From NCBI GenBank assembly GCA_030265395.1, contig JARFYF010000112.1:68280482-68344481 (forward strand): DNA of 64,000 nucleotides. Reading direction: 5' to 3'. A program made the position numbers and the translations under genes. Source of the DNA: Rhina ancylostomus (lineage: Eukaryota). This document shows, piece after piece, positions 6,431 through 62,157 of this stretch (the stretch's first letter is position 1; the number at the start of each line of letters is the position of its first letter). The notes under the pieces are model-generated. The model did not search any database, had not been told where the DNA came from, and saw nothing but the letters and a program-made list of their open reading frames with translations.

Positions 6431-6619
6431 CTTTTATACTCTCACTACCATACAAGGGTCCACTAATAGCACCTCCCAGGACTGCAAACACTAACATCAC
6501 AAAGGATGAAGGCACCAGGCACATGGTTTCTCTCCAGTTAAAACATCATCTTGATGTGAAAATATAATGTCATTCTTTTATCACTATGAGATCTGAATCC
6601 TGGAATTCTGTAACTTGCC

Positions 6620-7310
6620 CTTTTCCACTGCCGTGGTGAGGCAAGATGCAAACCAGAAGAATGACACTTGATATTCCACTTGGGTACCCTACAACCCAAT
6701 GGTGTTAAGATTGAATTTTCCAGTTTCAGGTAACCCACACCCCCTGTGTTCCTTTCCCACTCCTACTGGTTCACCCAGGTTCATTTTCCCTTTGTTAACC
6801 TTTTCATTTCTTCCCTTCTCCCCCTTACTGAGAGTCCTTACTCTCCCCCACCTGAGCACACATACACNNNNNNNNNNTTTCTTCCCCCTTGTTGTACCCT
6901 TACTAGACCATCTCCCATCTGATTCCATTTATCACCTCCCCCATCTGGTTCCACTTATCACTGTCCAGGATCTCTCTTCCCCTCCCCTCACTTGGCTCTA
7001 TCTGTCCAGTTCTTTTTCTTTATTTGTTTCCATCTATCTCCCACCAGCCTTTTCTCAAAGCTCCCCCTATGCATCCTCCACCAGGCTCCATCTGCCCATC
7101 ATCTCCCACATCACCTAGTTCCACCCATCACCCCTCCCTCTCACCTCTTTATACTGGATATCTTCCCTCAACATTCTCAGTCTGATGCAGGGTCTTGACC
7201 CAAAATGTCAACCATTCCTTTGCCTCCAGAGATGCTACTTGACTCACTAAGTTCCTCAAGCAGTTTGTTTTTTTTTCTGTCCAGATTCCAGGATCTGCAG
7301 TCTCTAGTCT
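6620..7310 (+). mobile_element. Penelope-like element 3' end: endonuclease C-terminus, CT-rich spacer and pLTR with a degenerate hammerhead motif
   Basis: 6626-6733 translates HCRGEARCKPEE*HLIFHLGTLQPNGVKIEFSSFR*, resembling the C-terminus of the PLE GIY-YIG domain (E..LI..L.TL.P.G.N). 7178-7215 reads CAGT-CTGATGC-A-GGGTC-TT-GACCC-AAAAT-GTC-AACCA. Confidence 0.75.
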
Positions 7311-8869
7311 CTCCAAATAATTGCTGTATCCTTTTGGTCCTTGTTGCTTCATTAATCATCATTCAGATAAGATTCTCCTTTAATAAACTGTGCTAGATAA
7401 ACACTGCTAATTTGAACTATACCTCAGAATTTTTTCCAACAATTTTCTCACTATCAATGTTAAACAATTGGACCTCTAGTTACTTGGTCCATCCCCTTCA
7501 TTTTTTGTTAAACAAGTGTGTGATATTAGCAGTCTTTCAAACCTTCAAACCAACTCTGCAGCCAAAGAGGATTGGAAAATGGTTGGAAAATGATCTTCCA
7601 CTGTTATTTCTTTTGAGACCTGGGGTACATTTTCTCCAGGCCATGTGATTTACCACATTTATGAATGATGGACTGGTGTATTCTCCCTGTTTATCACTTC
7701 CTATACTTAATATGCTTTTTCTTTAATTTCAGCTTCTGTATAATACCCATTTTCTGTGAAGGCAGACCCTAGAACTCTACACATGAATGTTGTCTCCATA
7801 CATGGACCATTCCAATAGATCTTCATCTTCCCTTTATTATCCTCTTTTCAATCAAGTATTTATATATAAAAAAAGCATTTTAATGGTTTTCTTTTTTTAA
7901 TCAGCCAAAATTTGTTTGATTCACCCATTAATCTTTGGATGTTCCCTTCTAGTTTCACTCCCTGCACCAAAAATACTCCTCCAGCTTATCTACAGTGTTA
8001 TGTTTCTGGTATTTGGCATAAGCATTTTTGTTGCCTTTTTCTTCCGTGTATGTTCTATGGCACCCATGGAAATGCATTGTTATCAGTGCAATACGATGAT
8101 GAATTATTACTCTTTTATTAACTCTAAGAATCCATTTAAAAGTTATTGTTTCAAAAATAGCATGGTTTGGCATGTTCTGGGCATGTCCAGTTTTGCTATC
8201 TATAATAAAGAAAAATTATTTATTGATTTGAAACAGTTTTGTAATCATGTAACAGGTCTGAAAGAAGAGAAATTGATTTAGGAGAACAACAAAACAAGGC
8301 AAAACTTTGATTATAATGTCGTATGGCCAGTGGGTCCAATGACTGTGTTCTGCGGCAATTGGCAGACATTGCAAATATAGATGAGAGCAAAAGGAATGTC
8401 TGAGACAAAGCAAAGGGAATGTTAAGCAACAGAGCACAATATCAGGGTGGTAAAGGTGATGTTCAACAAGAAGCAATAGATGTTAGGGTGTGGTTCTGAA
8501 GCTCTTGCTGGCAACCAACATGGCCTCACTCTGAGCCATGTAAAATATTAAGCTGTAGCCACTTCCCTGTTCCCAAAGCTTCCAGTCACTTATTTAAAAT
8601 ATTCCTGCCCACACCTGTTTCTAAACCAAAGTCTCCAATACACCCTGAGCACAACCCTGCTTTATTGATTCCCATTCTCAAACTGTCTCCTAATCCAATA
8701 AATCTAAAGTACTCTTGGTTCCAGTTTCACCCTCCCCATTCAAATGTGACACAAGTTGATTCTGCAGCCCAAAAATTAATCTTTTAAAAATATTCTTGTA
8801 TCAGCCATTAATTTTAAGAATATTTGCTAATTCTAATTAATTAAGACATTTTATACAACTGATATCATC

Positions 8870-12765: not shown

Positions 12766-14779
12766 GTAATTTTTTTTGAACTTTTACGTATTAAATCTCT
12801 CCTGGAAGAAGCTGGGGTAAAGTTGATCAGGGACACTGTCGATAAAGGCAATTTACTGGAGAAACACCTGTTAGTGATTATGAGTGGAAGACAATTTAAA
12901 ATATTAAGTACAGTTATTGAAAATAGAAGTAAGATATAACGGGATTCGACCAATAACGTTTAACTTTTAAATCAACATTGTCTTTGATGCACAGAAACTC
13001 TGCGTGCAAATCCAAAGCTTCCCTGAAAAATGCATGTCAGAATATAGAAATGATGCTCTGTATGTACCTTGTGCATATTCCTGTTACTGGGTTACATTAA
13101 TACTTCAAAGATTATAAAATGATTGTACATCATGTTGATTGATGGAGTGATACTTAAACCATAGACTTCATTGAGCTGTTTATCTGCATCAGGCTGTGGG
13201 AGCTGCCTCGTGGAAGAACGGTGACTGTTCAATTTAATTTAAAAACGTGATTTTTTTTTTGTTAATAATTTCATAAATAAGAAAACATTGTTATTTAAAC
13301 CAATTACAACTGATGCCATATTTTAATATTTTCCTTTGTCATTGCTTTATTTTTATGTTAAACCTTTTTTAAGCCATGTTTACTCTGTGGAGGAAAAAGA
13401 ACTTGCTTATTTTTTGGTTCCATTCAGTAAACCCTGACATTCCCTGGCTGTGGAATGGAGCACTGCACGAGATTGCTTCTGAGTGATATGTCAACATTTT
13501 GCTCTTGTTTCAAATATAATACTACAATATTGAAAAATGCCTAGTATACAAAAGCAATTCTTGTATTGAAGTTGTATCAAGGCAAAAACAAAACATAATT
13601 TTTTAAAATCTGTGTTTATTCATTAGGATATTATAATAAAAAGAAATGGCTTGAGAGGAGACAGCTCCTAATAACAGTACTAACATAATGACACAAATGC
13701 TTTTGGTGCTGAAGTTTCAACGGTTCTGTGTGGCTCAATGAGTGCTAGACTGCCTTTCAGAGGGTATCAATACCAAACCCAGCTTCAACCTACACTCTTG
13801 GTTCACCAGCCTCTGTGGTTATTCCAGCCTTTCTCAGCTGTGCTGCCAGTTGAATTATTTTCATTGGCACAGGCATTGATAAATGCCAGCAGCTCCAAAT
13901 GGAATCGTAACATTTTCTAGCTTAAATGCTGGTAAGTCCAGGGTCTGCAAGCAAAGGAAGTTGTCAATACACCGTGTTGCTGAACCATGGACAACTTCTG
14001 AGATTAGTAGTCGGGGAATTGACCCTCAGACCTTGTCACAGAATCCAAGATGTTGTGGAGCTCAATGTGGATTGTAAAACTGGTTATAAAAAGGAAAGTA
14101 AATTATTTTCTTGAATTGTTTAGTTCAATATTTTAAATTATTTGTCCTTTTTGATAAGATTACTTGTCCATTTGTAAAAGTTTTTAATGTATCTAAATGT
14201 TAGAGACATTAAATACTATTAAACATTTCCTGAAAGCAATGAGTGCTTTCAGGGCTGGTGGTGAGGCATAGGCAGCTGTCAGGGTCTGACAGTGTGGTTT
14301 CTGTGCACTGTTGGAGGCCTTGTCACTACTCAGGCCACACTTCTGGAGACTAGGATGCTTGAAGTCAGCAAGAAAGACTCTCTCTGCATGTAGTCCAGGT
14401 AAGCGTGGGTGTGGGGAGACTGTGGGTGATGATTTCAGATGGCGTGCCTAGGCCACAAAATTCTGCCCAAACTAAAACAAGCCTCTTGTTATGGTTGGCA
14501 TTGGAGGAGTTTTGGTGCTCTTGCTGAATGTTAAGTGTGTAGAGTTAATATTTCATTCTTGGGATGGATCAGATTGGGCAGTTTGGATTCTGATTTCTGG
14601 GCTTTAATGAATGTTTTCCATCACAGTTCCTCATGAGGATCAGAGTAGGAGTCTAAAGCCAAACACGGCCAATTCAGAACATTACTATAGATCAAAAGCA
14701 CCTCAAATCAGATTAGTTTAGACACAAATAGTACCCATGTTTGTTATAAGTGATTGGATCACAAATCCACTCGGTGAAA

Positions 14780-14960
14780 AACCTGCAGATTTTGGAAATC
14801 TGAAATAAAAATGGGGCATTCTGGAAATAAAGTTGGGCTGCATTTATGGAGAGTAAAACAGTTAATGTTTTAGATTGACAGTTTGTCAACATGAAACATT
14901 AAATTTGTATCTCTTTCCACATATGGTACCCAACCTGTTAAGTACTTAATATTCTGCTTT
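14780..14960. mobile_element. Old Penelope-pLTR-derived foldback element in APLN intron 1
   Basis: ctgcagattttggaaatctgaaataaaa...tatggagag..acagttaatgtttt on the left is mirrored by gaaacattaa..tctttccacatatg..acctgttaagta on the right. Same family as 61968-62157. Confidence 0.5.
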
Positions 14961-17628
14961 CACTCAAGTTATCCTCCTATCATCAATCCATATTAATTTG
15001 ATGAGAACAGGTTAATTCTTCACATTCCATTGCTATAAACTTGAGTAATATCAAATAATGCTACTTGCTTCCATTGCAAGTTAATATAAATTCTTATAAC
15101 TAATTTAAAATCAAAAGCCAAGACTACTGGATAGGATTTGATCAAGCTGAAATTTCTGCTCACTTGTGCTACATGTATTGTTTATGAGGAGTGCAATGTG
15201 CAGAGGACTCTCATCTAAACCATTAAGACTTTGCTGCACTCTCACCAGTCCATTGTTGAATGCACCTGTGGCTTCTTGATGGATTGTGCAATAACTCTTG
15301 AAACATTTTTTTGTCTTTTTCTCCTCTCCCCCTCCATTGCTCGCACTGGGCGTGCTGGCAATCGTTCTCGATACCTCATGCAAGTGGCTATTAATATGCC
15401 AATCCAAACTGACCCATTGAACGGCTCATTTGTGGCACCATTCAGAGCCCAATTGCTTGCTTAAAGAAAATCTGTACACCAGCAGGAGTCGCCAAAGAGC
15501 AATCGTAATCCCAGTGTAATCTGCTGTCTTGTATCTTGATCAGAGGTACCAAAGCCAAATACATCAACAGCTTCCAATTTGTAGGAGACCAGCATAAACT
15601 TGGAATAAACCCTGAAACCTTCTTGATTTGTGTGCTCTCATCACTTTGGATTGTTAATTTCATTGCTGAAACCCTTGTAAAAGTTGTAGCTTGTACAATT
15701 TATGATCACAATTGATCTGTTTCAATTAAAGCTTGTCTCTTTCCCGTTTTGCTTTATTCTTTGATTTCATTATATAAAAGGAAATGAGTTTTCCCAATTA
15801 GTGATTTTTTGGGGGGGGGGTGGCCAAGGGAGAGCCATAGTTTTTTTTGAAAGCTACTAGGTGAGAATGAAAGAGTACCAGGTAAGGCATGGAGATTAGA
15901 TTGTTTGAGCTGATAAATGATCAGTAAAGAAATGTACTGATCTCTGAATAGGGCAGACACATTCATGAAGATTCAAAGTGTTGTGTGAAATATTAAGATC
16001 ACCTGCTATCAAATTTCCTTGGAAAGCTATTTAAATGGCTGCACCCTTAAGAGTCACCATCCAGCTTCCCCACCCACCTGTACTCGGCGAAGTTACAGGG
16101 TGAAATTCAAGGGCTCCTTTAAAAGGTGTAGAAAGCAATGCTTAATTTTATAAAGCCAAAGCTTCCCTTAACTGGATCCAAAAATGCATTCCTTTACTCC
16201 TTGCACTGCTGGGGAGATTTGTACTCATCTCTGGAACCCTCCACTGCTGTTCCAGCAGGTTTGTGTCAGAAAAGATATTCCAAATACAAGATGGTTAGAT
16301 TTGCCTCAGGATCTTCATTGGGAGAAAAACCTGATTTGAATATGTTTGAGGCTCCTGGATATCCAAAGGGTTGAGGGTCATATCTAGGGACACTACTTGG
16401 TTTTAACTTGCATCTTGCCAAGTTCCAGCTATAACTACACTTGCCTGTGTCTTTGTGAATAACAATTTGGTAATGAGGAACTAATTGAACCTGTAATTAT
16501 TACGGCTACTGGCTTCCAACTTGGTTGATATAACTCAACTGCTGTAGTAAAGGCACCAAATGCCATGAATCCATAGATTACACAATCAACTGAGGAACAC
16601 CTGAATATCAAGAATCCAAAAATGATTCATTGTGTGGGAACCAGTGAGTAGATTTGTGCATCTAGGTGAATTAAATAGTTCCTGCTTGGCTGATCGAGAT
16701 GATCTATTTTCCGTATAATCTTAAACTATTCATGTAACTTATTAATAGTTTAATTTGTGCTACACTTAAATCAGAAGTGCAGATGACATCATTGATGTCA
16801 AGTGTAGATGACCTGATGCATCCTTCCAGTTGTACATTGTTTAGTCTCTGGCCCTATGTCCTAGTTATTTGCAGATATGTTTGCATTTCAATTTCTAAAA
16901 ATGAAGATGACTTTTCAGGGAATACTGAGAAGTACTCTGAATTGCAGCAATATTTTTCATTTGTGTTCAACAAGGCTTAACATTTGTTTTATAACTTTGT
17001 TTCACCTTAAATGTGGCATGTTTTGACTTTTAATATCCTCAGAGGATCTTGCTTATGTTATTCATATCCTTTACAAGAACTCGCTAATTATAGGAAGCAG
17101 TTCATTAGGTCTAAACATTGAACCTGTGGGTGTGGTTTGGTACCACAGTTGTAGAGTGAGGATCATTCATTTATTTCTAGATCCTTTTTTAAACAAGGAG
17201 TGCATGCAGTTTGTGCAGTCAATGATAATGGGTTAACTACAAAAGATAGTCTTTGCAATTACGATTTTAACAGGCCTTATCATGCTGGTACCAGCCAAAT
17301 CAAACACTAGGATTTATTGATCAAAGTTTGAATGTCAGAAGCACTGTATATGGAAACTAAAGTAGGGTAGTAGCATGTCCCAATGGCTTAATGTTTATAC
17401 AGGGAGTAACTTAGCCATGTAGTTTAGTCTTTAGGTTGTTGCTAGAATGGGGCCAGGAGGTGAAAACTTGCCAATTTCTAGTTGTGTTTGTGGGGTTTAT
17501 TTAAGGATGGGATTAGTTTTTAGTAATTATGGCCCTTGAAATGAAATAGGCTGCAAATAATACACAGGGTTAAATGAGCTGGAATCTACCATCAGATTCT
17601 ATTGTTTAAGAACATTTAGTCAATGCAG

Positions 17629-17891
17629 TGTTACGTTCCAGCAACAAAAGAAACACACCGAGACATGTATAAATGTTAAAAACTACTTTATTAATAACTA
17701 CTTATGATAATAAGNNNNNNNNNNNNNNNNNNNNNNNNNNNNNNNNNNNNNNNNNNNNNNNNNNNNNNNNNNNNNNNNNNNNNNNNNNNNNNNNNNNNNN
17801 NNNNNNNNNNNNNNTTTATCTTCTGTTGACGTAAGCACACCACACACACAATCTTAAAGGAACCTCACTAATTGTAACCTAGTCCGTAACA
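17629..17891 (-). mobile_element. Probable solo LTR (Gypsy-like) in APLN intron 1; the middle is an N gap
   Basis: The termini TGTTACG...CGTAACA form a perfect 7-bp inverted repeat with TG...CA ends. The 4-bp TSD GCAG lies at 17625-17628 and 17892-17895. AATAAA is on the minus strand (actttatt). Confidence 0.8.
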
Positions 17892-20092: not shown

Positions 20093-20510
20093 TTTGGTTT
20101 GGTAAATTGGTTTATTCTTGTCACATGTATCAAGGTACAATGGAAAAACTTCATTGCATTGCCACCTATACAGATCACTTCATCACATCAATACATCACA
20201 GTAGTACAAGGGAAATAATACAATGCAGAATATTATGTTGTAGTGCAGGTAGCCAATAAGGTGCAAGGCCATTATTGAGGTCAAGAGTCCATCTTATTAT
20301 ACAAGAGGACCTTTTTAATAGTCTAACTGTGGGATAGATTGCTCTTGAGCCTGGTGGTATGTGCTTTCAGGCTTTTGTATCTTTTCCCTGACGGGACGTA
20401 GGAGAAGAGAGAATGTCTGGGGTGGGAGTAGTCTTTGATTATGTTGGCTGCTTTACCAAGGTATTGAAAACTATAGGCAGTCTGTGAAGGGGAGGCTAGT
20501 TTTCGTAGCT
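20093..20510 (-). mobile_element. Rex/Babar-like LINE 3' fragment in APLN intron 1
   Basis: Colinear with 55790-56240 (ggtaaattggtttattcttgtcacatgta...cttgagcctggtggtatgtgctttcaggcttttgtatctt...tttgattatgttggctgctttacc). Confidence 0.85.
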
Positions 20511-24929: not shown

Positions 24930-25340
24930 TAACATGACATGCCCAGTAAATGGCAGGGACAATTCAATGTCAGTGGTGATGTACAGAGCTTTAAATGTAA
25001 CTTCATTGCTCCATGAAAATGGCAATACGGGTGGATAGTGAAGAAGGCATTTGGCATGTTTGCCTTCATAGGGTGAAGCACTGAGCATAATTGGGCTATC
25101 ATGTTACAGTTGTACAAATTAGTCAGACTGCACTTGGGCTATTGTGTACAATTCTGGTTGCCACACTTCAGGTAGGATATGGTGGCATTGGAAAGAGTGC
25201 AAAGGAGATTCCCTAGGATGTTGCCTGGATTGGAGGGCTCTCATTATAAGGAGAGACTGGATAGGGTGGGTTTATTCTCACTGGAATGTTAGAGACTGAG
25301 GGGTGACCTTGTGGCAGTTTACAATATTGAGGTAAAAGCA
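24930..25340 (+). mobile_element. CR1 (HER1-like) LINE ORF2 C-terminal fragment
   Basis: Decayed KKAFGMFAFI...LQLYK.LVRLHLGYCVQFWLPHFR*DMVALERVQRRFPRMLPGLEG, a typical CR1 ORF2 C-terminus. Confidence 0.85.
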
Positions 25341-25375: not shown

Positions 25376-25980
25376 TAATCCATAGAAAAGTACAGCACAG
25401 AAATGGGCCCCTGCAGACCACCTTATCCATGCTGACTGTGATGCCTATCTAGGTTAATTGTATTTGCTCACTTTAGGCCCCTATCCCAATAATCCTTCCC
25501 TATCCAAATACCTGTCCAAATGTGTTTTTAAACATCGTAATAATTATGTCTCCATTACCTCCTGGCATCTCATTCCAAATATCCACCATCCTTTGTGGGT
25601 GGGGGGGGGGTGGGAAACTTAACAGATTGCCTTTTGTCCTCTCATTTCTCCCCTCTCACTTTAAATATCCTGTCCTCTAGTTCTAAACTCTCCTGCTCTG
25701 GGAAAACTTTACTATTTGTCNNNNNNNNNNNNNNNNNNNNNNNNNNTAATCTTGTAAATGTAGATAAGGTCACCCCCTCACCCTCTTATGTTCCAGTGAG
25801 AATAAGCATACCCTATCCAGTCTTCCCTTCGTAACTATTGGCCTCTATTCCAGGCAACATCCTGGCAAATCTCTTCTGCACTCTTTATTCCCAATACATC
25901 TTTCCTATAGTATGGCGACCAGAACTGTACACAATACCTTCTGTGGTCTAACCAATTCTTTCTACGATGACAACATGACA
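25376..25980 (-). mobile_element. CR1-like LINE 3' fragment, opposite in orientation to the adjacent copy
   Basis: catagaaaagtacagcacagaaatgggccc... is the reversed 3' UTR. caggcaacatcctggcaaatctcttctgcact and ggcgaccagaactgtacacaatac are the reversed VQRRF.RMLP and YCVQFWSP motifs. Confidence 0.8.
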
Positions 25981-30900: not shown

Positions 30901-32829
30901 TTTCACCAGTAGAGCAGTGGAAGGTTTTAATGTATATTTTCTTTCAGCGTGTATGTACTTTAATACACCATTAAACATTGAGTTTTAAATTCAGGTATTC
31001 AATTTTTAAGAAAAATCAAAGGAGATTTTGTAATAAATGACAAACTGGAACAGTGCTTAAATGTTTAAGGAAAATAGTGAAACAATGATTCCAAATTTTT
31101 CATTTGCAAAAACACAATCTGAATAGAAAATGCTGAAAACATTCAGCAGGTCAGGCAACAGCATTTTTTTTTTGGGGGGGGGGTGGNNNNNNNNNNNNNN
31201 NNNNNNNNNNNNNNNNNNNNNNNNNNNNNNNNNNNNNNNNNNNNNNNNNNNNNNNNNNNNNNNNNNNNNNNNNNNNNNNNNNNNNNNNNNNNNNNNNNNN
31301 NNNNNNNNNNNNNNNNNNNNNNNNNNNNNNNNNNNNNNNNNNNNNNNNNNNNNNNNNNNNNNNNNNNNNNNNNNNNNNNNNNNNNNTATGTTAAAGTGCC
31401 AACATCTGTTGTTGGGGGGGGGGGAGGGGGGAAAGGAAAGAATCTGTTTGGAACCTACAGGATGAATGACTAAGTCAGAAATATTGCTGGGAAGATCAGC
31501 ATGATTGTTCCCATCCACTTGAACAAGCCTTTTTTTAAAAAATGTTTAGCAGAGTTAGAAGATATAGGCCTTTTTATTTTTAAAGAGCCTTAATATTCCA
31601 ATATTCAAATTTTGATAAATTGTTAATATCTACTTCTGTCATACACTACATTGTTGTACAACTTCAAATTCCATTCATATAGATTATTTACGTTAATTTT
31701 GAGGTATTCTGTGAATTTGCTATACACTAAGAGAACATGTAAAAAGGCATTGGAGGTGTACATTTTATGGAATTAAGGACCTTGTTAGATCACTGGAATG
31801 TGTATCTGTACATGCACATGCAATTAAAACTGATAAGGACAATAGCTCAATACATAAATGGACTTCGGTAAATGACTGTTAAGCACGTATTTTTAAAAAA
31901 AAACCTGAATGTCAAAGAGCCTGGACTTTGGGAGCAATCCAAGTGAGGTGCTCTAGTTTTTCAGATATAGTCATTTTGGCACAGATATATAACGCTTCTC
32001 TGACAAGGCTAAACCCATTTCAGATTTAGAGAGCCTGTCCAACACTTGCTGTGTGACAGGTAATTGCCCATTATTAGATCAACAGCAGGCCAACTCTGAA
32101 TTGGCACTGTTCCAGCTTGGTTTGCTATAGTGAAGAATTATTTCTCATTAATCCATCACAAAGTTTGTTCGTTTTTATTTGTATGTCCAAAAAAATGGAG
32201 AAACTTAAATTAATGTGACTTTTTACTTAGCTGCCAAGGCTCTGTATATATTCATTGGGTAATACTGAATCAAACACAAATCAGAATGACATACTTTCCA
32301 CACTTATGGAAAATAAATGCTTCCAGATCCATGGCTAGGAGGGATATGCTTCAAACAACACGTCTCCAGCTCTGGCAACTTGTTAACAGAATGATTCACA
32401 AACAGCTGTGCTGTCCATCATTCTTTCTTTTCTGTGAGGGCATTTTGAAAAGGCCGAACTGTCCTGTGTAATAGGAGCCTGTGAAAGCCATTTGTACCCC
32501 TCTCTCTCTTTCTCACAAACACATCCAACTCTGTAGAGCCCGGTTGCTTCAAGTCATTTTTCATTGGCATCCCCTTTATCTAATTCTTTTAGATCATCCT
32601 GACAACCTATCTGAACAGATATTACATTGTGCTGATTTAGCTGCTCCCCTATGGAGCAACAAATAGGGCACAGCTATTATCTTTACCTTAAACATCTGAG
32701 GTAAGGAAAGAGGGAAAGAAAATAACCAGGTTTCTTGTTCTTAATCTTTATGGAGTAAAGGAACAAATTTGGGTAGGGTTACAATTTAAGCTTGTTAAGC
32801 AACCTACTGACATTTATTTTCTGTGCTTG

Positions 32830-32997
32830 TGTTGCGTACCAGCAACAACAGAAACACACTGAGACATATGTGTTTAAAAACTACTTTATTAATAACTACT
32901 TACGATAATAAGTAAAATAAAAGTAAAAATGTTAAACCCCAAACATTAACTCCCAAAACTAACTAAACTTGTCGTGTGTGTGTGGCAAATTCCCAGA
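32830..32997 (-). mobile_element. Second copy of the LTR family, truncated by a gap
   Basis: TGTTGCGTACCAGCAACAACAGAAACACACTGAGACAT...aaaactactttattaataactactta is nearly identical to 17629-17714. Confidence 0.75.
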
Positions 32998-44949: not shown

Positions 44950-45820
44950 AACCAAAGGAGAAGGGGAAGAAGGACCCATGTCCAAAGACTCTATCTTTTG
45001 CTCTCTGAGGAGCAATGTATACGGAAGCTAACTCTTCATAATCATTGGAGACAGAGATCTGCAACCTTCTGCCACACACCCATGCCTGGATTGTTCTGTC
45101 TATGGAGGTCAAGGTCACCATCACCCTGAACTTCTTGGGCTTCAGATCATTCCCGACAGTGGCAACTGATCTATGCCACATTTCTGTTTCCTATAGACTG
45201 CTACATTAGGGAAATTTCAATTCAAGAAAGAGTCTTTATTTACTTTTCCTCTGGGAGACATAATGAAGCTGAGCATTCATGCAGATTTGTCAGAAATGAT
45301 TTGCAGAAAAGATTTATGAGGATGTTGCCAGGATTGGAGGGCCTGAGGTATAGAGAGAGGTTGGCCAGGATAGTTCTTTATTCCTTGTAATGTAGGAGAA
45401 TGAGGGGCAACCTTATTGAAGTGTTTTAAATTCTGAGAGGCATAGATAGGGTAACAGTCTTTATCCCAGAGTAGGGAAGTCCAAAGCTAGGGGGCATAGG
45501 TTTGGGGTCAGAGGGGAAAGATTTAAAAGGGACCTGAAGGGCAACTTTTTCTATGCAGAGGGTGGTGGGTATATGGAATAAGCTGCCAGAGGGAGTTGCT
45601 GAGACAGGTACAATAGTATCATTTAAGCAGTACTTGGATAGGTACGTGGAGGCATGGGGCTTAGAGGAATATGGGCCGAACATAGGAAATTGGGTGGGCA
45701 CTGTGGTTGGCATGGACTGGTTGGGCTGAAGGGCCTGTATAAGTCCTGTTTTGCTCTATGACTCTAATTGCCAGCTTCCTGATGGTTCAGGCAGTCATAG
45801 ACTGCTTTCACCTAGCTTTC
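44950..45820 (+). pseudogene. Fossil PIF/Harbinger (HARBI1-like) transposase, interrupted by a CR1 insertion
   Basis: Fragments in the expected order: RRRGRRTHVQRLY (from 44956), LSEEQCIRKL (45001-45030), TEICNLL...VLSMEVKVTITLNFLGFRSFPTVATDLCHIS (45051-45185), CYIRE (45199-45213). After the CR1 comes IASFLMVQAVIDCFHLA (45767-45817), equivalent to AGFP.V.GAIDCTHV with the first catalytic Asp. Confidence 0.8.
45302..45766 (+). mobile_element. CR1 (HER1-like) LINE 3' end
   Basis: QKRFMRMLPGLEGLRYRERL..., then F.QRVVGIWNKLP. The 3' UTR gggctgaagggcctgt ends in a (CTCTATGA)n tail. Confidence 0.9.
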
Positions 45821-46403
45821 ACTGAATGCACAACTTGTCGTCAACCACGAGAAGAAATGTAACAGGTGTGGAAAACATCTTCCACAATAATTTAAGTTTC
45901 CCACCTCCATCTTAATTATCTTTATTTACAAATTGACTTTTCTCATTGGGATTTATTCAAGCCTAATAATCAGTTTCAAAGCGGTAACACAAATAAATGG
46001 CTGTTTTCAGATTTCCCACAGCTGAAGCAATAATTAGTGGAATTCACTTTTCTCAAATGTGTTAAAATAAACCTTCCTCACTAAAAACAGTTGCAACTCA
46101 TAAAAGCAGTTATCAAAGATTCCTTATCAATATCATATTCAAAATAATAATCATGCTTTAACTAACTGCTCCACAGCATTTGATTACTTGGATTTTGATA
46201 CATTTAGAGATACATAGTTCTCTCCAACTTAAAGGTAAAGTTTCATCATAAAATTTTTTTGGATATTGGCTTACTCATGTAATTAAGTAACAAGTGGTGT
46301 TCTGGTGATTTTAAAAGTGTGCAAATGGTACAGTTCAAGATGAAAAACATTATGATGCTGGAGGAACTCAGCAGACCAGGCAGCATCTGAGGAGAAAAGC
46401 AGT

Positions 46404-46441
46404 CAGTCAACGTATTGAGTCAGGACTCTTCTTCAGAACTG
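46404..46441 (-). ncRNA. Degenerate minimal type-I hammerhead ribozyme motif (mirror copy)
   Basis: The minus strand reads CAGTT-CTGAAGA-A-GAGTC-CT-GACTC-AATAC-GTT-GACTG. Confidence 0.55.
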
Positions 46442-46633
46442 AAGATAGGAAAAGGGGAAGCCCAATACATAGGAGGGAAAAGCAGAGTAGTGATTGATGG
46501 ACAAAAGTGGGGAGGTGGGGTAGGCACAACCTTCCTATCAACACTTTGTGCCCACCCCGCCTCCCTTCTTTTGTCCATCAATCACTACTCTGCTTTTCCC
46601 TCCTATATATTGGGCTTCCCCTTTTCCTATCTT

Positions 46634-46671
46634 CAGTTCTGAAGAAGGGTCCTGACCCAAAATGCTGACTG
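46634..46671 (+). ncRNA. Degenerate minimal type-I hammerhead ribozyme motif
   Basis: CAGTT-CTGAAGA-A-GGGTC-CT-GACCC-AAAAT-GCT-GACTG: stem I (CAGTY/GACTG), CUGANGA core and stem II are present. GAAAC and the NUH site are mutated. Confidence 0.55.
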
Positions 46672-49054
46672 CCTGCTTTGCTCCACAGATGCTGCCTGGT
46701 CTGCTGAGTTCCTCCAACATCATAGCGTTTTTCATCTAGATATTCCAGCATCTACAGTCCCTTGTTTTTCTGGTATAGTTCGAGGAGCAGTGGGAGCGGT
46801 CTAGCGTCTAGTCGAAGCTTTATTCATTTTTTTGTACAATAGTTTGCAGTTTATATTTAGGACCATTGATAATATGGACCAATTTGACACCTTGTTTAGT
46901 GCATTTTACATTAAATTAATAGTGCTGCAATCAGACAGACTGCAAAATGCATCAAATGCTGTTTAGCTTCTTACAGAGAAATAAAACAAGCTTAATATTA
47001 CAGCCTACAGGATGTTATGCTGCCTGAATAGAATGGACTGTCTTCATAGACACTCCAGAGTACCTGCACAAATGCACCATGTCTATAATTATCATTAGTT
47101 ACAAAAGATAAGGGCAGAACTGAATATGGTGCAACTGATAATGAATGTAATAGTAGAATGGCTGCAGATTCCCAAGCAATCTACCCGACCCTGCATTTCT
47201 GCTAACCCCAATGGTATCCTGGCTTAAACTCATTCACGTGACATCCTTCCATTACTCCCCTGGAAAATATCCAAACTGTGGGATCTCTGTATCATTAGAA
47301 TTTAACTTAAGTGACTTCAAGAAAAGAACAGAAAAATAGAGAAAAATCCTTCATTAATTTCAAAATTGTACTCTACATCCCTTATGCCAATTTAAATTTT
47401 GAAAGCTTTTGCTGAGCACTATGAGCTTGTACAACAAATTCTCATAAGCAATTTTTCAACAGTGAAAATGGTTACATCAGTGTTTAGTCCATTTCATCAC
47501 ATCCAATATATCCACTGACCTATATATTTTAATGAGCTATATGGGTGTACTAGGTGGATGTTACAGCAGGGAACCAATGATCCTCTCAGTGGCGGGCTCC
47601 TACTGCAAATTTTAAAAGTGCCCATAGGCCGGGATCTCAGGCACTACTGAATGAGCATTGCACTTTTCTGCTCGGGATCATGATATAGTCAGCGTGAAGG
47701 GCTGGAAGAGGGGAGCTTAGTTGGGAGATGGGCATCAGCTGGAGGATGGGTGTTGAGTCAGTAAGGAAGGTTACTGATGGGATAGGGGTTTGGGGAGAGG
47801 TCTTAATGCAGAAATTGGGGCCTGAAAGCAAAATTGATGGACATTGGGAGGTTGCGGCAGAGTTGGGGGAGGTGTGGCAGAAAGCTGAAAATGATAACTT
47901 ACAGGAGTCCTAATCTGGCCTGTTGTCCTTGGAGTCTTTTCTGGAACAGCTATATCAAAGTTCCTCTATACTTCTTCAAAACGAGCATTGGCAAGGAAGT
48001 GGTGTAACCCCCTGTGCAACTGACACAGAAATCACACCAGGAGTCCAAGGGAAGAGCTCAGTAATGTGTCCAAAGAACTGCAAAAGCAGTGTGGAAATAA
48101 TTTTAATGACATTTCATTCCAGGTTAAGTCAATTCTTATTCGTAGAAGAATACAGTGTTATGTGGATGAATTTCTGGTCTACTGTTTTAGATCAAAATGT
48201 CTGAGTATGTTTACATGATTATTGGTCACTCTCCTAAAGCATTACTTACTCACAGAAGTAAAATCTAGTAGATTTTGATGAATTCAGTAGTCTTATCCTG
48301 ACAGTTACTTACACAATAATGGAATGCAACCAACTTACTAAACATTAGACAACATTAAAGTAGCAACAACAGAAGTGACAATTAAGAAACATATGTCATG
48401 AGAAAAGCAGCTTCAAGGCTGTAGGACAATTTATAAGATACACTACAGTGAATTAGGAACTCAAATGCAGTTTCGAGATTTTGGGATGTAGGCTATAATT
48501 AATTCCTGCAAGATGGTCATGATTAGATATTAAATATTCCAGATTATAATGCCTTTAGATAGAACAGAGAAAGTGGAATGGGGTGAAGGGAGGCTTTATT
48601 GATTATATACACTATTGCAACCTTAGTAAGAGAGCATGTAGGAAGGAGAAGCAATCAGTGAAGAAACATACTTAAAACTGATGAATAAGATAGTTCTTAA
48701 CTGTAAATGGGACATCTGAAGGCCCTGTTATCATTACTGAAGTAGCTGCATTACTTTATTCAGAGATTGCAAATAAAGTAAAAATATTTTAGTTGGAGAC
48801 TTTAATTTTCAGAAAAGTTGAGGGGGTACCTCAAGTAAAAATCATATTGAATTTCCTGAACACCATACAAGAGCAGAACCAATGAGAACACAGACCATAT
48901 AGAATGTAGTAATGTGTAGTGAGCCAGATTTAATTAATAATCTATAGTAAGGAAAATAAATCTAGAGGTTTTCATAATATGTATTCCTCAAAATAAAAGT
49001 TGATGTTATTGTGACTTTTCAGGTTTTTGAAAGAAGTTGATGGTTTAGATAGGG

Positions 49055-51289: not shown

Positions 51290-51692
51290 TTCCCTCATTC
51301 CTGTGGCCCCCTCACCCCTTCTCTTTCCTCTCCCCTGCCCTTATGACCTGCCCATCCATTCCCCATCTCCTTCCCTTTATTCCATGTTCTACTGTACTCT
51401 CCTACCAGATTCTTTCTTCTTCAGCTCTTTGCCGCTTCTATGTATCACCTCTCAGCTTCTTGCATCACTCCCTTNNNNNNNNNNNNNNNNNNNNNNNNNN
51501 NNNNNNNNNNNNNNNNNNNNNNNNNNNNNNNNNNNNNNNNNNNNNNNNNNNNNNNNNNNNNNNNNNNATTCTGGCCTCTGCCCTGTTCCTTTCCGGTCCT
51601 GATGAAGGGTCTCGACCCAAAACACCAACTGTTTATTTCCCTCTATTGATGCTACCTGACCTGCTGAGTTCCTGCAGCATTTTGTGTGTGCT
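51290..51692 (+). mobile_element. Penelope-like 3'/pLTR fragment with a hammerhead motif at 51594-51631
   Basis: CT-rich spacer, then CGGTC-CTGATGA-A-GGGTC-TC-GACCC-AAAAC-ACC-AACTG, then gatgctacctgacctgctgagttcctgcagcattttg, which is shared with the 7.2 kb and 46.7 kb copies. Confidence 0.8.
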
Positions 51693-51779: not shown

Positions 51780-53480
51780 GACAAAACTGAAGGCACTTTA
51801 TCAGAATATATACAACATTCTAAACAACATGGAAGAATTGATAGTATAACTAGAAATAGCTATGCATAATCTAATAGACATTTCAGAGATGGAGTTGTAA
51901 AGTGACCAAGGTTGGGAATAAAATATTCCAGGATGTTTAACTGTTGGAAGAGATAGGCAAAATGGAAAAGAAGGAAGTGTAGTCCTGAAAATAAAGGATA
52001 GAATAAAAACAGCAGAGAGAAAAGATCTAGGCTTGGAAATCAAGCAGGAAAATCAGTTTGAATGAAGCTAAGTAACAGATGGAGGCAGCAAAATTGGTGG
52101 GAGTTGTCTATAAGCCATCACACAAGAGCAGTAAAAATCTGTAAGGTAAATATGCATGTAACAAGATGGTACAGTAATCATGGTGGACTTCAATTGATAT
52201 ATAGATTGAGAAAATAAAATTAGTAGTAATACTATGGAGAACAATTACATAGACTATACACAAAATGGTTTTCTTGATCCATGTGTCTAGGAAACCATTT
52301 TGCATTTAATCTATGTAGGAACCAGCTAAGGTATTGTAAAATGAGAAATGGCAAGTTAATATCTTGAAGATAAGGAGCCTTAGAGAAAATAATTATAGGA
52401 TTGGTCAGATTCAACATTGTCTTATGAGAGGAAAATCATGTTTGAGTTTTCTGAAGTTGTAAACAGCAGAATAGATCATTGTGACCAATGAACGTGGTGC
52501 TTTGGGACTTTGAGAAGACCTTTGATAAGGTGCCACACAAAGGCCTGTAAACAAAATTGGAGTTCATGGGAGTGAGCATAATATACTGGTATAGATTGAG
52601 GACTTGTTAACAGAAGAAAACTGGGAGTAGGAATAATTTTTTTGTGGAGGATTTGGAGTTTGCAAGTAGTGGCATGCTACTACTTGTAAACTCCAGCTGG
52701 TCAAAACCTAAATCAATAACTTTGATGAAGAGATAAAATGTTCTAGGTTGTTTATGAATAAGATAGCAGAACTTTGAGGAGGATGCAGAGAGGCCTCGAG
52801 GGAATATGGACAAGTAAGTGAATGGGCAAGGAGATGGCAGCTGAAAAATAATTTGGTAAAATATGAAATCATCCTCTTCTGTAGAAAAACAAGCAAAGTA
52901 GTGTATTTTTAAGTGGTGACTGAAAAAAAAATTGATTTGGCAAGCAATTAAGAAGGCAAGCCTTTAGTCTTCTTTGCAAGAAGTTTTCAGAATAATGATA
53001 TTTCAATTATATAGAGCTCTGGTGAGACTACATCTGGAACAGTGTGTGCAGATCTAGTCAGCCTACCTGAGGAAGGATACATTTCTGATAGAGGGGCTAC
53101 AACAAAAGATTACCAGATTGATGCCTGTGAATGGGCAGGGTTTGTAATATGAGGAAATATTAAGCAGACTGGGGCTACACACTCTTGAGTTTATTAGAGC
53201 AAAAGGTAATGTCCTTGAAACTCACAAAATTCCTAAGGAACTCAACAACAAGATAGATGTAGGAATGATATTTTCTCTGGTTAGAATACCTTGAACCAGG
53301 TCAAATTCAGGACTGAGATGAGAAGAAATTCCTTCAACAATAGAGTAGTGAATCCTTGGAATTTTCTACCCAAGAGAGCTGTGGATGTTCTGTTGCTGAA
53401 GGGCCTCAGTTTTAAACCCCTTTCCGTCTTCTACTCCTTGGATAGAAACTGGATTGGTGCAGTGAAAATGGAACTAAAGG
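51780..53480 (+). mobile_element. Old CR1 LINE spanning endonuclease, RT and C-terminal remnants
   Basis: Decayed motifs IAISE..L (endonuclease), IMVDFN, DFEKTFDKVPH and LVRLHLEQCVQI, plus RRNSFNNRVVNPWNFLPKRAV (ORF 53291-53485). Confidence 0.8.
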
Positions 53481-55786: not shown

Positions 55787-57297
55787 TGGTGAATTGGTAA
55801 ATTGGTTTATTATTGTCACATGTACCAAGGTACAGTGAAAAACTTTGTTTTACATGCCATTCATACAGGTCATTTCATCCCATCAGTACATTGAGGTAGT
55901 ACAAGGGAAAAGCAATAACAGAATGCAGAGTAGAGTATTAGTTACAGAGAAAGTGCTGTGCAGGCAGACAATAAGGTGCAAGGCCATGACAAGGTAGATT
56001 GTGAGGTCAAAGGTCCATCTTATCGTACAAGGGGACCATTCAATAGTCTTATAACAGCTGGATAGAAGCTTTCCTTGAGCCTGGTGGTATACGCTTTCGG
56101 GTTTTTGTATCTTTTTCCCAATGGGAGGGGGGAGAAGAGAGAATTTCCAGGGTGGGTGGGGTTTTTGATTACGTTGGCTGCTTTACTAAGGTGGCGAGAA
56201 ATTTAGACAGAGTCAATGGAGGAGAGGCTGGTTTTCATGATCTGCTGAGCTGTGTCCACAACTCTCTGCAGTTTCTTACGGTCCCAGGCAGAGCAGTTGT
56301 TATACCAAGCTGTGATGCATCTGGATAGGTTGCTTTCAATGGTGCATCTATAAAAATTAGTGAGGGTCAATGGGGACATGCTGAATTTCTTTAGCCTACT
56401 GTGGAAGTAAAGGCACTGGTGCACTTTTTTGGCTATGGCGTCTGCGTGGTTGGACCAGGACAGGTTATCGGAGATGTTCAATCCTAGGATCTTGAAGCCC
56501 TCAACCTCAGCACCATTGATGTAAACAGGAGCATGTGTGCCACCCTACCCGCACCTCCTTCCTGAAGTCAAGGACCAGCTCTTTTGTTTTGCTGATCTTG
56601 AGGGAAAGGTTGTTGTCATGACACCTTGCAACTAGGCTCTTTACCTCCTTCCTGTACTCTGACTCATCATTATCTGAGATTCGGCCCACTACAGTGGTGT
56701 CATCCGCAAACTTGTAGATAGAGTTAGAGCAGAATCTGGCCACGCAGACTTGAGTGTATAGGGAGTAAAGTAGGGGGCTGAAGGTGCAGCCTTGTGGGGC
56801 ACCAGCACTGAGGATAATCACAGCAGAGGTATTGCTGCCTATCCTTACTGATTGCGGTCTGTTGGTCAGGAAGTCAAGGATTCAGTTGCAAAGGGAGATG
56901 TTGAGTCCCAGGTCTAGAATTTTGCTTGGAATTATGGTATTGAAGATGGAGCTGTAGTCAATAAATTATAGTCTTCCATAGATGTCTTTACTATCCAGAT
57001 GCTCGAGAGATAGGGCCAGGGAGATGGCATCTGCTGTGGACCTATTTCGGTGATAGATGAATTGTAGTGGGTCGAGGTTGTCGATGAGGTTGGAGTTAAT
57101 GTGTGCCAATGACCTGCCTCTCAAAGCATTTCATGATAGTGGATGTCAGAGCCACCGGGCAGGAGTAATTAAGACACGTTACTTTACTTTTCTTTGGTAG
57201 GGAGAGGTTAAAAATGTCTGCAAACACCCCTGCCACCTGACCTGTGCAGGATCTAAGGACACATCTGGGGACTTGATCCGGGCCAGATGCTTTCCAG
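55787..57297 (-). mobile_element. 5'-truncated Rex1/Babar-like LINE with a well-preserved RT region
   Basis: Minus-strand ORFs: [16 protein letters not shown]...[26 protein letters not shown]...IYKFADDTTVVGRIS...KTKELVLDFRK, and LTNFYRCTIES. The 3' tail is (ACCAATTY)n. A possible TSD ATCAAAT lies at 55780-55786 and 57298-57304. Confidence 0.92.
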
Positions 57298-61230: not shown

Positions 61231-61967
61231 TCCTAGCTGATCCTTTCATTTGAGTAGAAAATCTACAGTCACTTCAGAATTGGACAAAGAACAGTTTCTA
61301 CTAGAAATCAAGGAAGGAATTCTATTCCCCTCAATTCATTAAAGTGATGTTCATTGATGTTGAAGCTATCACTTCTTGCAACCGCGATGAGATCAAATAT
61401 GCCAGCAACTTTCAGAAGTTGTAACAACCAAAACCTAGCAAATCCTATCCACTCCCTCCTTTAAAGCCTGCAGCTCCCTTAAAGTACGGGCAATATTTGG
61501 ATTTTTTGTCAAGAGCTCCAAACGTGCTCCTCAACCCAAGCTGGGCTTGTGCCTGTAAATTTCAAAACAACCCAACAGGAATATCAGGATGAGTAACTAG
61601 ACCCCACATGCAATACATGTGCCATGCTCATGTCATTCTCAATCAGCACCTGGCAGGAACATGAGGTCAACTATTTCCAATAACAACCTTGGTGGAAATG
61701 AATTCATTTATCATAAATCTTTACTTTTCATAACACTAACAAAAAAAATGACGTAACATGGTATCCTCTGAGAGTGGACAAGGAAGTTCCTAGATTGAGA
61801 TTTGCAATGCTATAGTGGATTATTTATTTTATTTCTATTGATACTCAGCTGCTTCATTCAACTTTCAGACAGATATTCATATTAACAATCAGAACTGGCA
61901 TAAGCAATTAGTTTGACATGAGTAATTAGGAAGTGGTAACTGAGCATTTAGGAAATAATGAAAGGTA

Positions 61968-62157
61968 AAAGTCTGCAGATGCTGAAAACCTGAAATAAAA
62001 GCAGAAAGTGCTGGAAACACCCAGTTAGACAGGCAGCATCTATGGAAAGAGAAATAGTTAATGTTTCAGATCCAAGAGCTTTCATTACAATGTTCCCTTT
62101 AAGTTCTGAGATATGATCTCCAACTTGAACCATTAACTGTACCTCTCTGCACAGATG
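61968..62157. mobile_element. Old Penelope-pLTR-derived partial foldback
   Basis: ctgcagatgctgaaaacctgaaataaaagcagaaagtgctggaaac...ggcagcatctatggaaagagaaatagttaatgtttcag is followed by the mirrored tgaaccattaactgtacctctctgcacagatg. Confidence 0.6.

Follow-up and report, generated by a model that had tools for sequence, protein, structure and literature searches.

Background

Inverted, 5'-truncated copies with a tail of 30-40 bp on one side only have been described for Penelope-like elements (PLEs) in parts of PMC8557442 and PMC3846280, and TSDs of 8-10 bp flanking inverted pLTRs are described in part of the latter. Self-priming is proposed as the origin of the inverted structures in part of PMC3846280, and extension of both strands has been shown in vitro in PMC11167929, where the main text uses the word "inverted" only for a reagent. 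According to parts of PMC11167929, both strands are nicked and extended in vitro, the tail is the interval between two RT start sites, and insertion does not need the ribozyme. The traits of the minimal PLE hammerheads, which occur as opposite-strand pairs 100-700 bp apart, are set out in part of PMC4209133 (Cervera and de la Pena 2014). These motifs came from a descriptor search and not from Rfam. Non-LTR retrozymes, which are non-coding, carry a type-I hammerhead and are derived from or moved by PLEs, have been reported in one chondrichthyan genome (PMC7229834; bioRxiv 10.64898/2026.07.22.740005).

Structure of the insertion

An analysis of the window, which is the whole stretch of 64,000 nucleotides, identified a pair of inverted arms at 46335-46529 and 46546-46740. 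These are 195 nt long and 91% complementary, with 16 nt between them, in good agreement with the 192 bp arms and 16 nt middle of the original prediction. The arms differ from each other at 17 positions, 11 of which are transitions, and there are no gaps. When trimmed of the 4 nt that overlap the left direct repeat, 191 nt with 16 differences remain. The hairpin has a predicted fold of -342.5 kcal/mol (z = -33), and none of 100 shuffled sequences folded as well. The features are read as follows.

46326-46338, plus strand: left copy of the likely TSD, matching 46771-46783 at 11 of 13 positions
46339-46770: the unit between the direct repeats, 432 bp, asymmetric
46339-46529, minus strand (element sense): left arm, a probable 5'-truncated PLE 3' end (pLTR piece), tailless, its 3' end abutting the left TSD
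46530-46770, plus strand (element sense): right arm, a probable 5'-truncated PLE 3' end with tail, its 3' end abutting the right TSD
46530-46545, plus strand: the 16 nt "spacer", from contig alignments the upstream continuation of the right arm and no separate part
46737-46770, plus strand: 34 nt 3' tail, on the right arm only, recognised from the family sequence
46771-46783, plus strand: right copy of the likely TSD; contig 15 of run X4 bridges arm, TSD and flank

It is highly probable that this unit consists of two 5'-truncated 3' ends of a repeat, placed head to head between a likely 13 bp target duplication, with both hammerhead copies lacking core bases and predicted to be inactive. The repeat is very abundant and is likely to be a shark and ray Penelope-like retrotransposon of the Neptune type. 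An inverted truncated copy, a one-sided tail and a TSD are the published hallmarks of PLEs.

Both mismatches in the direct repeat are transitions, and the 13-mers lie flush with both 3' ends of the element, as a TSD would, which agrees with the earlier view of this repeat. With both ends known to within 5 nt, 10 of 5000 random trials produced an equal match; with looser ends, 18 of 500 did. One likely TSD encloses the whole unit, and its insertion as a single event, as had been proposed, is upheld. The abundance of the family and the looser-boundary trials would favour two unrelated events, either an inverted duplication made during local DNA repair or the arrival of another copy alongside, the direct repeat being due to chance. 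Given the flush position of the 13-mers, an asymmetry that is exactly the tail, and arms that are 91% alike as against 69-74% to other copies in the window, such a history is very improbable.

The left arm is tailless. In loose read ends at 46338, family sequence extends about 30 nt further. Behind 46741, the loose-end consensus is the tail sequence in all four runs. The tail is also present in the 7.3 kb, 14.8 kb and 62 kb relatives and absent from the 51.6 kb relative. At the inner end, the alignments of contigs 3 and 4 of run X1 begin at 46534 and enter the right arm, and contig 10 of run X4 tracks the left arm and ends at 46529. The "400-bp foldback element" first described has its foldback arms, but it measures 432 bp and is asymmetric, the 16 nt middle and the tail being sequence of the right arm only.

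The insertion is old and fixed, because divergence between the arms (16/191) resembles that of the flanks from species label D (46/725; Fisher p=0.33) and because X4 contig 15 joins arm and flank. In the reads, it is common to at least two species labels.

Relatives in the window and the link to PLE proteins

Six further pieces of the family are found in the window. Most are single, and pieces of different lengths share the 3' end. Three are described here.

6602-7316, plus strand: single-copy relative with the remnant of a GIY-YIG ORF C-terminus (6614-6733, one in-frame stop), a CT-rich 3' region, a decayed hammerhead and the tail; 69% identical to the right arm over 134 nt
14772-14975 (right boundary approximate), no strand assigned: a related PLE family's head-to-head pair, the second in the window and the older of the two, whose junction has a short palindrome, from nhmmer and self-alignment
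51290-51690 (left boundary approximate), plus strand: single-copy relative with a CUGAUGA core, tailless and partly N-masked; 73.5% identical to the right arm over 102 nt

For the 14.8 kb pair, nhmmer matched the minus strand at 14772-14894, a copy that is in the model, and the plus strand at 14876-14947 (E=3.4e-4), which is outside it; the self-alignment score was 47 against a maximum of 44 in 200 shuffles. A candidate head-to-head pair at 62 kb was rejected, with a score of 36 below the shuffled maximum of 56. There is no tandem array of the unit in the window, the two short arrays present being unrelated.

The relative at 6602-7316 ties the repeat to the end of a PLE ORF. Its 39-codon remnant (6614-6730) has 13 protein matches at E<=0.001, 12 of which share a motif; the top match, P0002, is a repeat artefact and was dropped. 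Among nine matches looked up, six were labelled and all six are from a skate, ray or shark. A second search, seeded by one match, gave 6 proteins among 14 candidates. One protein, P0015, has a GIY-YIG domain above the cut-off and an RVT_1 match below it (E=9e-5). Over 39 aa it shares 49% identity with the remnant, and in a tblastn search it matches 6614-6745 (E=2e-8). Another, P0017, continues beyond the ORF end, and 11 of its 16 C-terminal residues agree with the translated 51.6 kb hammerhead, which connects this hammerhead with an RT/GIY-YIG element. Searched by itself, the remnant had no Pfam match and no word-index homologue, a search of viral contigs with P0015 found no locus, and no solved structure was found for P0017.

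A CX4CxxC linker is present in four of five relatives' proteins checked, the fifth lacking the last C. In the Neptune clade a CX2-5CxxC linker lies between RT and EN, and Nematis shares it. Placement in the Neptune clade seems likely by the linker motif of the relatives, rather than by a tree. The arms share with Neptune-clade EN+ PLEs, as these are described in part, the 5'-truncated copies, the head-to-head inverted copy, a one-sided tail (34 nt here against 30-40 bp), a short TSD and a hammerhead near the 3' end, and the relatives here carry RT, linker and GIY-YIG. They differ in that the insertion is too short for an ORF or a tandem copy, and in the likely TSD of 13 bp, as opposed to 8-10 bp in the rotifer cases in part of PMC3846280. 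The absence of an ORF from the unit had been noted before. The RT/GIY-YIG link is made via relatives that share only 69-74% identity, over 100-135 nt, and the subfamily to which the arm belongs could therefore be non-autonomous.

The hammerhead motifs

Each arm contains one motif, recognised earlier, and here confirmed, as a minimal type-I hammerhead of the PLE type.

46404-46441, minus strand: left decayed minimal type-I hammerhead, with G12A and A14U; an A-U pair replaces G-C in stem II
46634-46671, plus strand: right decayed minimal type-I hammerhead, with G12A, C15.2U and U16.1C

Both arms retain CUGANGA, the extra base, the G10.1-C11.1 pair, and helices I and II. The G12-A13-A14-A15.1 run is broken in both by G12A and in the left arm also by A14U. 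The cleavage triplet U16.1-H17 is kept in the left arm (GUU) and lost in the right (GCU). The cores are AAAAU-GCU on the right, where C15.2U and U16.1C together remove GUH, and AAUAC-GUU on the left. The original prediction had (G)AAAC-GUH in each arm, whereas AAAC-GUH is found in neither; it was correct that the G of GAAA is lost, G12 being missing from both. Since conserved core bases are lost, both copies are predicted to be inactive, and what had been called probable is now very probable. There are more core lesions than first stated. The T at 46665 is carried by 5387 of 5694 and by 5708 of 6046 reads of run X21.

The hammerhead is decayed in all copies in the window. G12A is common to the four closest of these, so that the source copy could already have been without G12. 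From stem II to stem I, 7 of the 8 CpG sites of the family motif are changed in the two arms, and the CpG o/e of the window is 0.16.

Searches with Rfam gave no hammerhead at the gathering score in the window and none among the 36, 3 and 1 weak matches at E<=10. A pattern for the intact core had no matches in the viral, genome and metagenome collections or in the window. With two further short patterns there were no viral loci, 3 in the genome collection and 4 in the metagenome collection, but all seven match only around the pattern (22-53 nt) and are attributed to chance.

In common with the metazoan PLE hammerheads in part of PMC4209133, the motifs here have CUGANGA, an extra base between A9 and G10.1, the G10.1-C11.1 pair, a 5 bp helix I, palindromic 15.2/16.2, no loop 3, and an arrangement as opposite-strand pairs 100-700 bp apart. 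They differ in having a helix II of 4-5 bp instead of 7-8 and in the core bases that they have lost. No mention of sharks was found in the portions of the text and supplement of PMC4209133 searched.

As isolated 38-mers, the motifs form helices I and II in the MFE structure, whereas the flanked 53-mers do not. In a read-through transcript the predicted pairing probability of stem II is 0, since the long hairpin outcompetes it, and even an intact hammerhead would be unable to fold. It had been suggested that a transcript would be a long dsRNA containing a hammerhead. The first part stands as a prediction, in that a hairpin of about 190 bp, with no sign of a function, would form in whatever is transcribed across the locus; the hammerhead fold does not.

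The stem II change and host function

Stem II is GGGTC/GACCC in the right arm and GAGTC/GACTC in the left, a real two-sided change (46648/46657 versus 46427/46418), as originally noted. Under neutral decay, its chance is 1.5-3%, and the compensatory change is weak evidence. It sits in a copy whose core is dead, and selection on such a core is not what it can reflect. This low chance, and the presence of the insertion in at least two species labels, would be the case for a hairpin RNA or ribozyme co-opted and selected by the host, with the compensatory change as the mark of selection. Co-option is nonetheless extremely improbable. Core bases are missing in both arms, and the 38 nt motif has five differences, denser than the arm mean. 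The miRNA-family matches in Rfam all fall far below the gathering score and are hairpin artefacts, and places with A>G/T>C are alike in RNA (12/20) and DNA (11/17) runs. In the RNA run X22 (18% of one run, from another species label), depth on the flanks is zero. The 7135 reads on the arms in this run are from both strands, 95% of them continue into other sequence, and there is no pile-up of read ends; they are family-level read-through, uninformative on this locus or on cleavage. One sigma-70-like site was disregarded, this being animal DNA.

Family abundance and junctions

Depth on 46692-46735 is about 19,300 in the raw DNA run X21, as against 0-2.6 on the flanks, and 89% of the aligned reads of this run continue into other sequence. 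This read depth suggests tens of thousands of family copies, as an order of magnitude. The loose-end consensus has GAAAC-GUC as the family core in three of four runs and GAAAC-GUC-A in the fourth; it is intact for the stem II 3' strand, GAAAC, GUC and the stem I 3' strand. The reads behind it do not align upstream of 46681, so that it represents sister subfamilies, and in these related copies the GAAAC-GUH core sought in the original prediction is present.

The junction 46529/46530 is spanned by none of the 16 contig pieces listed out of about 46,000. Head-to-head junctions at other points account for 12 of the 15 joints listed out of 196. They are asymmetric by tens of bases. On its shorter side a joint is supported by 20-51 letters, for the most part within assembled contigs. 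Depth in the inner bins of the left arm is about 270 compared to about 7,600 in the mirror bin.

These data bear on the suggestion of a distinct non-autonomous, retrozyme-like foldback family, in which PLE enzymes would copy the whole palindrome as a unit. The single TSD and lack of an ORF are in keeping with it, and PLE enzymes work in trans on pLTR-bearing sequence (part of PMC3846280). Such a family is, however, improbable in the face of the junction and depth results, by which the junction is provisionally unique among the pieces listed, and of a predicted hairpin that prevents the hammerhead from folding. The arm is also found alone in the window, once downstream of a GIY-YIG ORF end, and no tandem array is present. 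The non-LTR retrozymes (PMC7229834; bioRxiv 10.64898/2026.07.22.740005) are likewise non-coding with a type-I hammerhead and a PLE connection, but they consist of tandem units in head-to-tail order, each with its own intact ribozyme, and make circular RNA, where here there is one head-to-head pair with dead cores.

The unit also resembles another class of element in outline. MITEs and foldback DNA transposons have long inverted arms, no ORF and a flanking direct repeat. The unit differs from these in its asymmetric ends, its variable junctions, and the occurrence of its arms singly and downstream of a retroelement ORF.

Insertion mechanism

For an inverted PLE insertion, the GIY-YIG domain of the element would nick both strands 13 bp apart, and the RT would prime cDNA from each nick on element RNA. 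One side would start at the outer start site, keeping the tail, and the other at the inner site, leaving none. Both cDNAs would stop after about 200-240 nt and be joined at their ends, and repair would fill in the duplication. The hammerhead would be a pLTR passenger, subject to later neutral decay, mostly at CpG sites. We lean, by a little, towards priming from both nicks as the source of the second arm.

Comparison can be made with the Anolis PAc element in part of PMC11167929. There too the two 3' ends are one tail apart; in this insertion they lie 70 and 104 nt beyond the position of cleavage, where the RT starts of PAc lie about 85-92 nt beyond it (the difference between 111-118 and 26, the figures given in the paper). 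An ATG within the CUGAUGA frame of the family would also resemble an ORF start at stem II. PAc differs in being of the Poseidon clade, not Neptune, and the target here is not evidently ATT-centred; this case is known from sequence alone.

A substantial possibility, though one that we would not bet on, is that the first cDNA folded over a 16 nt loop and was copied back, both arms then coming from one RNA molecule. Self-priming, a related process, has been proposed for rotifer PLEs, and junction palindromes are taken as self-priming in part of PMC3846280. Snap-back copying better explains arms that end just 16 nt apart, a coincidence for two independent cDNAs. The older 14.8 kb pair does have a short junction palindrome, and at three places both arms depart alike from the majority of reads (46587/46488, 46638/46437 and, by mirror position, 46578/46497). 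On the other hand, a palindromic centre is absent from this junction, other junctions are asymmetric by tens of bases, and an extra step is needed for the left arm to end at the tail boundary and lie flush against the TSD.

If priming from both nicks is correct, it is conceivable, but doubtful, that the locus preserves, as a fossil, the work of a dimeric PLE enzyme that primed both nicks on two different RNA molecules, the A-U pair in the left stem II being inherited from a second source copy with its ribozyme under selection.

Significance

The locus itself is of little weight, being one decayed copy among what read depth suggests to be tens of thousands, in a known class of element. Where shark and ray DNA has a long hairpin with a pair of opposed hammerhead-like motifs, this should be seen as routine PLE debris. 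A literature search did not find inverted Neptune-type Penelope insertions in sharks, and the family may already be listed in the supplements of PMC4209133 or bioRxiv 10.64898/2026.07.22.740005. The locus is a clean example of an inverted copy, one-sided tail and TSD within 432 bp, and the abundance of the family makes the question of how PLEs form inverted insertions a countable one. If the reading with two templates is true, tens of thousands of shark and ray pairs would allow arms from different templates to be counted, and the choice between both-nick priming and self-priming to be decided from genomes alone.

Structure of the insertion

The 432 bp unit at 46339-46770 is a decayed, very short head-to-head insertion of a Penelope-like element (PLE), real and ordinary. 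The inverted repeat of the original prediction is present, with 195 nt arms (46335-46529 and 46546-46740) that are 91% complementary and 16 nt apart, and no other pair among the window's 25 longest (of 89) is both long and near-perfect. Between the arms there are 17 differences, 11 of them transitions, with no gaps. The flanking direct repeat also stands: the 13-mer at 46326-46338 returns at 46771-46783, two transitions apart, with 432 bp between the copies. Random trials produced a match this good 10 times in 5000 when the ends were fixed to within ±5 nt and 18 times in 500 when they were loose.

Four public sequencing runs with three coded species labels (X1, X4, X21 and X22, of which X21 is raw DNA and X22 RNA) were aligned to 45900-47200 at 85% likeness. 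The right-arm sequence 46741-46770, missing from the left arm, was recovered in loose ends behind 46741 in all four runs and, in two of them, also in those in front of 46338, so the right arm extends 34 nt past the mirror of the left-arm end. The 3' end of each arm is flush with one 13-mer copy. Two X1 contigs align from 46534 directly into the right arm and one X4 contig runs along the left arm, ending at 46529; the 16 nt once regarded as a separate spacer are therefore more of the right arm. The unit is asymmetric, its arms lying head to head with both 3' ends outward.

46339-46529, minus strand: left arm
46530-46770, plus strand: right arm

Relationship to Penelope-like elements

A profile built from six window pieces has nine matches in the window, those six plus 2214-2302, 31121-31165 and 14876-14947.

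PLE-related features elsewhere in the window
6602-7316: 5'-truncated PLE copy, about 700 bp, with a GIY-YIG C-terminus remnant, decayed hammerhead and tail
14772-14975: a second and older pair in head-to-head arrangement, from a related PLE family; its junction has a short palindrome and its minus-strand copy the tail
61961-62098, 2214-2302, 31121-31165: related PLE 3'-end pieces from the profile search of the window; the 31.1-kb piece adjoins an N-masked stretch

The copy at 7177-7308 shares 69% identity with the right arm across 134 nt, and upstream of it are a CT-rich stretch and a 39-codon remnant (6614-6733) with one stop. This remnant has 13 protein matches at E<=0.001, one of which was dropped as a repeat artefact; six of the nine looked up carry labels, all being skate, ray or shark gene models, which points to an elasmobranch host. 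A second search from one match found six longer proteins among 14 candidates. Pfam GIY-YIG is matched by four of the six (two above the cut-off), and P0015 also matches RVT_1, below the cut-off; the remnant and the final part of P0015 share 49% identity (tblastn E=2e-8). A CX4CxxC motif precedes GIY-YIG in four of five proteins checked. Such a linker is described for Neptune and Nematis PLEs (PMC8557442); it is shared by these relatives' proteins, not read in the unit itself. P0017, another protein match, extends beyond the end of the ORF; of its final 16 residues, 11 agree with the hammerhead of the 51.6-kb copy in translation, an independent tie of this hammerhead to an RT/GIY-YIG element. 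These similarities mark the repeat as a PLE 3' end; the link to the subfamily of the arm itself is indirect.

Five predicted host proteins (P0003, P0005, P0008, P0010 and P0016), including neuromedin-U receptor, VKOR-like, ATP synthase c and LINE pieces, include an exon that is the end of this PLE ORF, probably a contamination of gene models in the annotation of sharks and rays.

Origin, recurrence and age

PLEs are described with an inverted 5'-truncated copy, a 30-40 bp tail on one end and 8-10 bp target site duplications (PMC8557442, PMC3846280); pLTR anatomy is treated in PMC8969392. Minimal hammerheads are reported with an extra base, G10.1-C11.1 and palindromic 15.2/16.2, in opposite-strand pairs 100-700 bp apart, their activity low and dimer-dependent (PMC4209133). 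According to PMC11167929, both strands are nicked and extended, the tail is bounded by two RT start sites, and insertion proceeds without ribozyme activity. These features suggest that priming would have occurred from both nicks, one at each RT start site, and that the truncated cDNAs would then have been joined. A close rival is that snap-back of one cDNA made the second arm, which explains the 16 nt offset better than both-nick priming does. The earlier reading as a retrozyme-like family is not supported, since tandem arrangement defines non-LTR retrozymes (PMC7229834; bioRxiv 10.64898/2026.07.22.740005) and the unit is not tandem.

Of 15 joints shown (of 196), 12 connect left-arm with right-arm sequence at different points (46366-46406 to 46632-46740); all 12 are of low depth, and their shorter side spans 20-51 letters. 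The 46529/46530 junction is in none of 16 pieces listed (of about 46,000). With the 14.8-kb pair, whose self-alignment scarcely exceeds that of shuffled sequence (its piece not used in the model has nhmmer E=3.4e-4), this indicates that the head-to-head geometry recurs and that this junction apparently does not.

Contig 15 of X4 runs from the right arm (44 nt) through the 13-mer into flank, differing at 18 of 253 positions, and another species label therefore shares the insertion; X1 was left out of this count as its flank match is exact and it may be the source species. Divergence between the arms (16/191) does not differ from that of the flank to X4 (46/725; p=0.33), and the arms can thus have been identical at insertion.

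State of the hammerheads

A relaxed scan of both strands of the window found three hammerhead sites: the left arm, the right arm and the 51.6-kb copy. The proposed Rfam check gave no hammerhead match. Both arms retain helix I (5 bp, one G-U), CUGAAGA, the extra A and helix II, as predicted; the catalytic 3' half, predicted as AAAC-GUH with a lost G, is more damaged, reading AAAAU-GCU in the right arm and AAUAC-GUU in the left. A 16 nt near-palindrome over helix I and the CUGAAGA box (approximately 46627-46642 and 46430-46445) folds locally into a competing hairpin in each arm.

In X21, X22 and X4 the loose-end consensus in front of 46681 preserves stem II, GAAAC, GUC and stem I; in X1 it carries one change. 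The reads behind it come from sister subfamilies that do not align to the arm upstream. The GCU of the right arm is private, T standing at 46665 in about 95% of X21 reads. Across helix II to helix I, the motif of the family contains four CpG sites, eight over both arms; seven of these are changed, one of them the site of G12, and window CpG o/e is 0.16. G12A is also found in the 7.2-kb and 51.6-kb copies, and given that it is always in the same direction, the source copy may already have been without G12.

The paired helix-II change between the arms is as originally described. It was picked out post hoc. A two-sided Watson-Crick change in one of 10 helix pairs arises in 1.5% of trials with 17 differences scattered randomly and in 3.1% given 5 differences inside the motif. 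Because the core is gone and the folding model gives helix II, whichever strand is taken, a pairing probability of 0 within the full hairpin, the change cannot reflect selection on the unit's copy. Chance, hairpin-templated repair or inheritance from a second source RNA may account for it.

Expression, copy number and other repeats

Family reads occur on both strands in RNA run X22, with no reads on the flanks and no pile-up of read ends, and its A>G/T>C place counts are similar to those of the DNA run. The reads speak for the family as a whole, not for transcription or editing of this locus.

Other repeats in the window (N total 1289)
56203-56881, minus strand: reverse transcriptase remnant of LINE type, in two frames (RVT_1 E=3.5e-10; ALKBH8_N E=4.7e-8)
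25140-25328, 25748-25936: opposite-orientation repeat copies, 76% identical, about 420 bp apart; relatives at 45319-45422 and near 60.7 kb
17628-17714, 32829-32912: repeat starts, 86% identical, each running into an N-masked stretch
52246-52317: small inverted repeat, 32 nt arms, 81%, 8 nt apart

The 3' part of the LINE-type remnant (55794-56236) is 74% like 20099-20504.

The hammerhead of this elasmobranch family was not found named in the literature searched, repeat libraries and some supplements being outside the search. The arm is a dispersed repeat with high copy number: in X21, 46692-46735 is covered to a depth of about 19,300 versus 0-2.6 on the flanks, and 89% of aligned X21 reads continue into unrelated sequence. 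If a depth near 1 on the flanks represents a single copy, the family would number about 10^4 copies or more.
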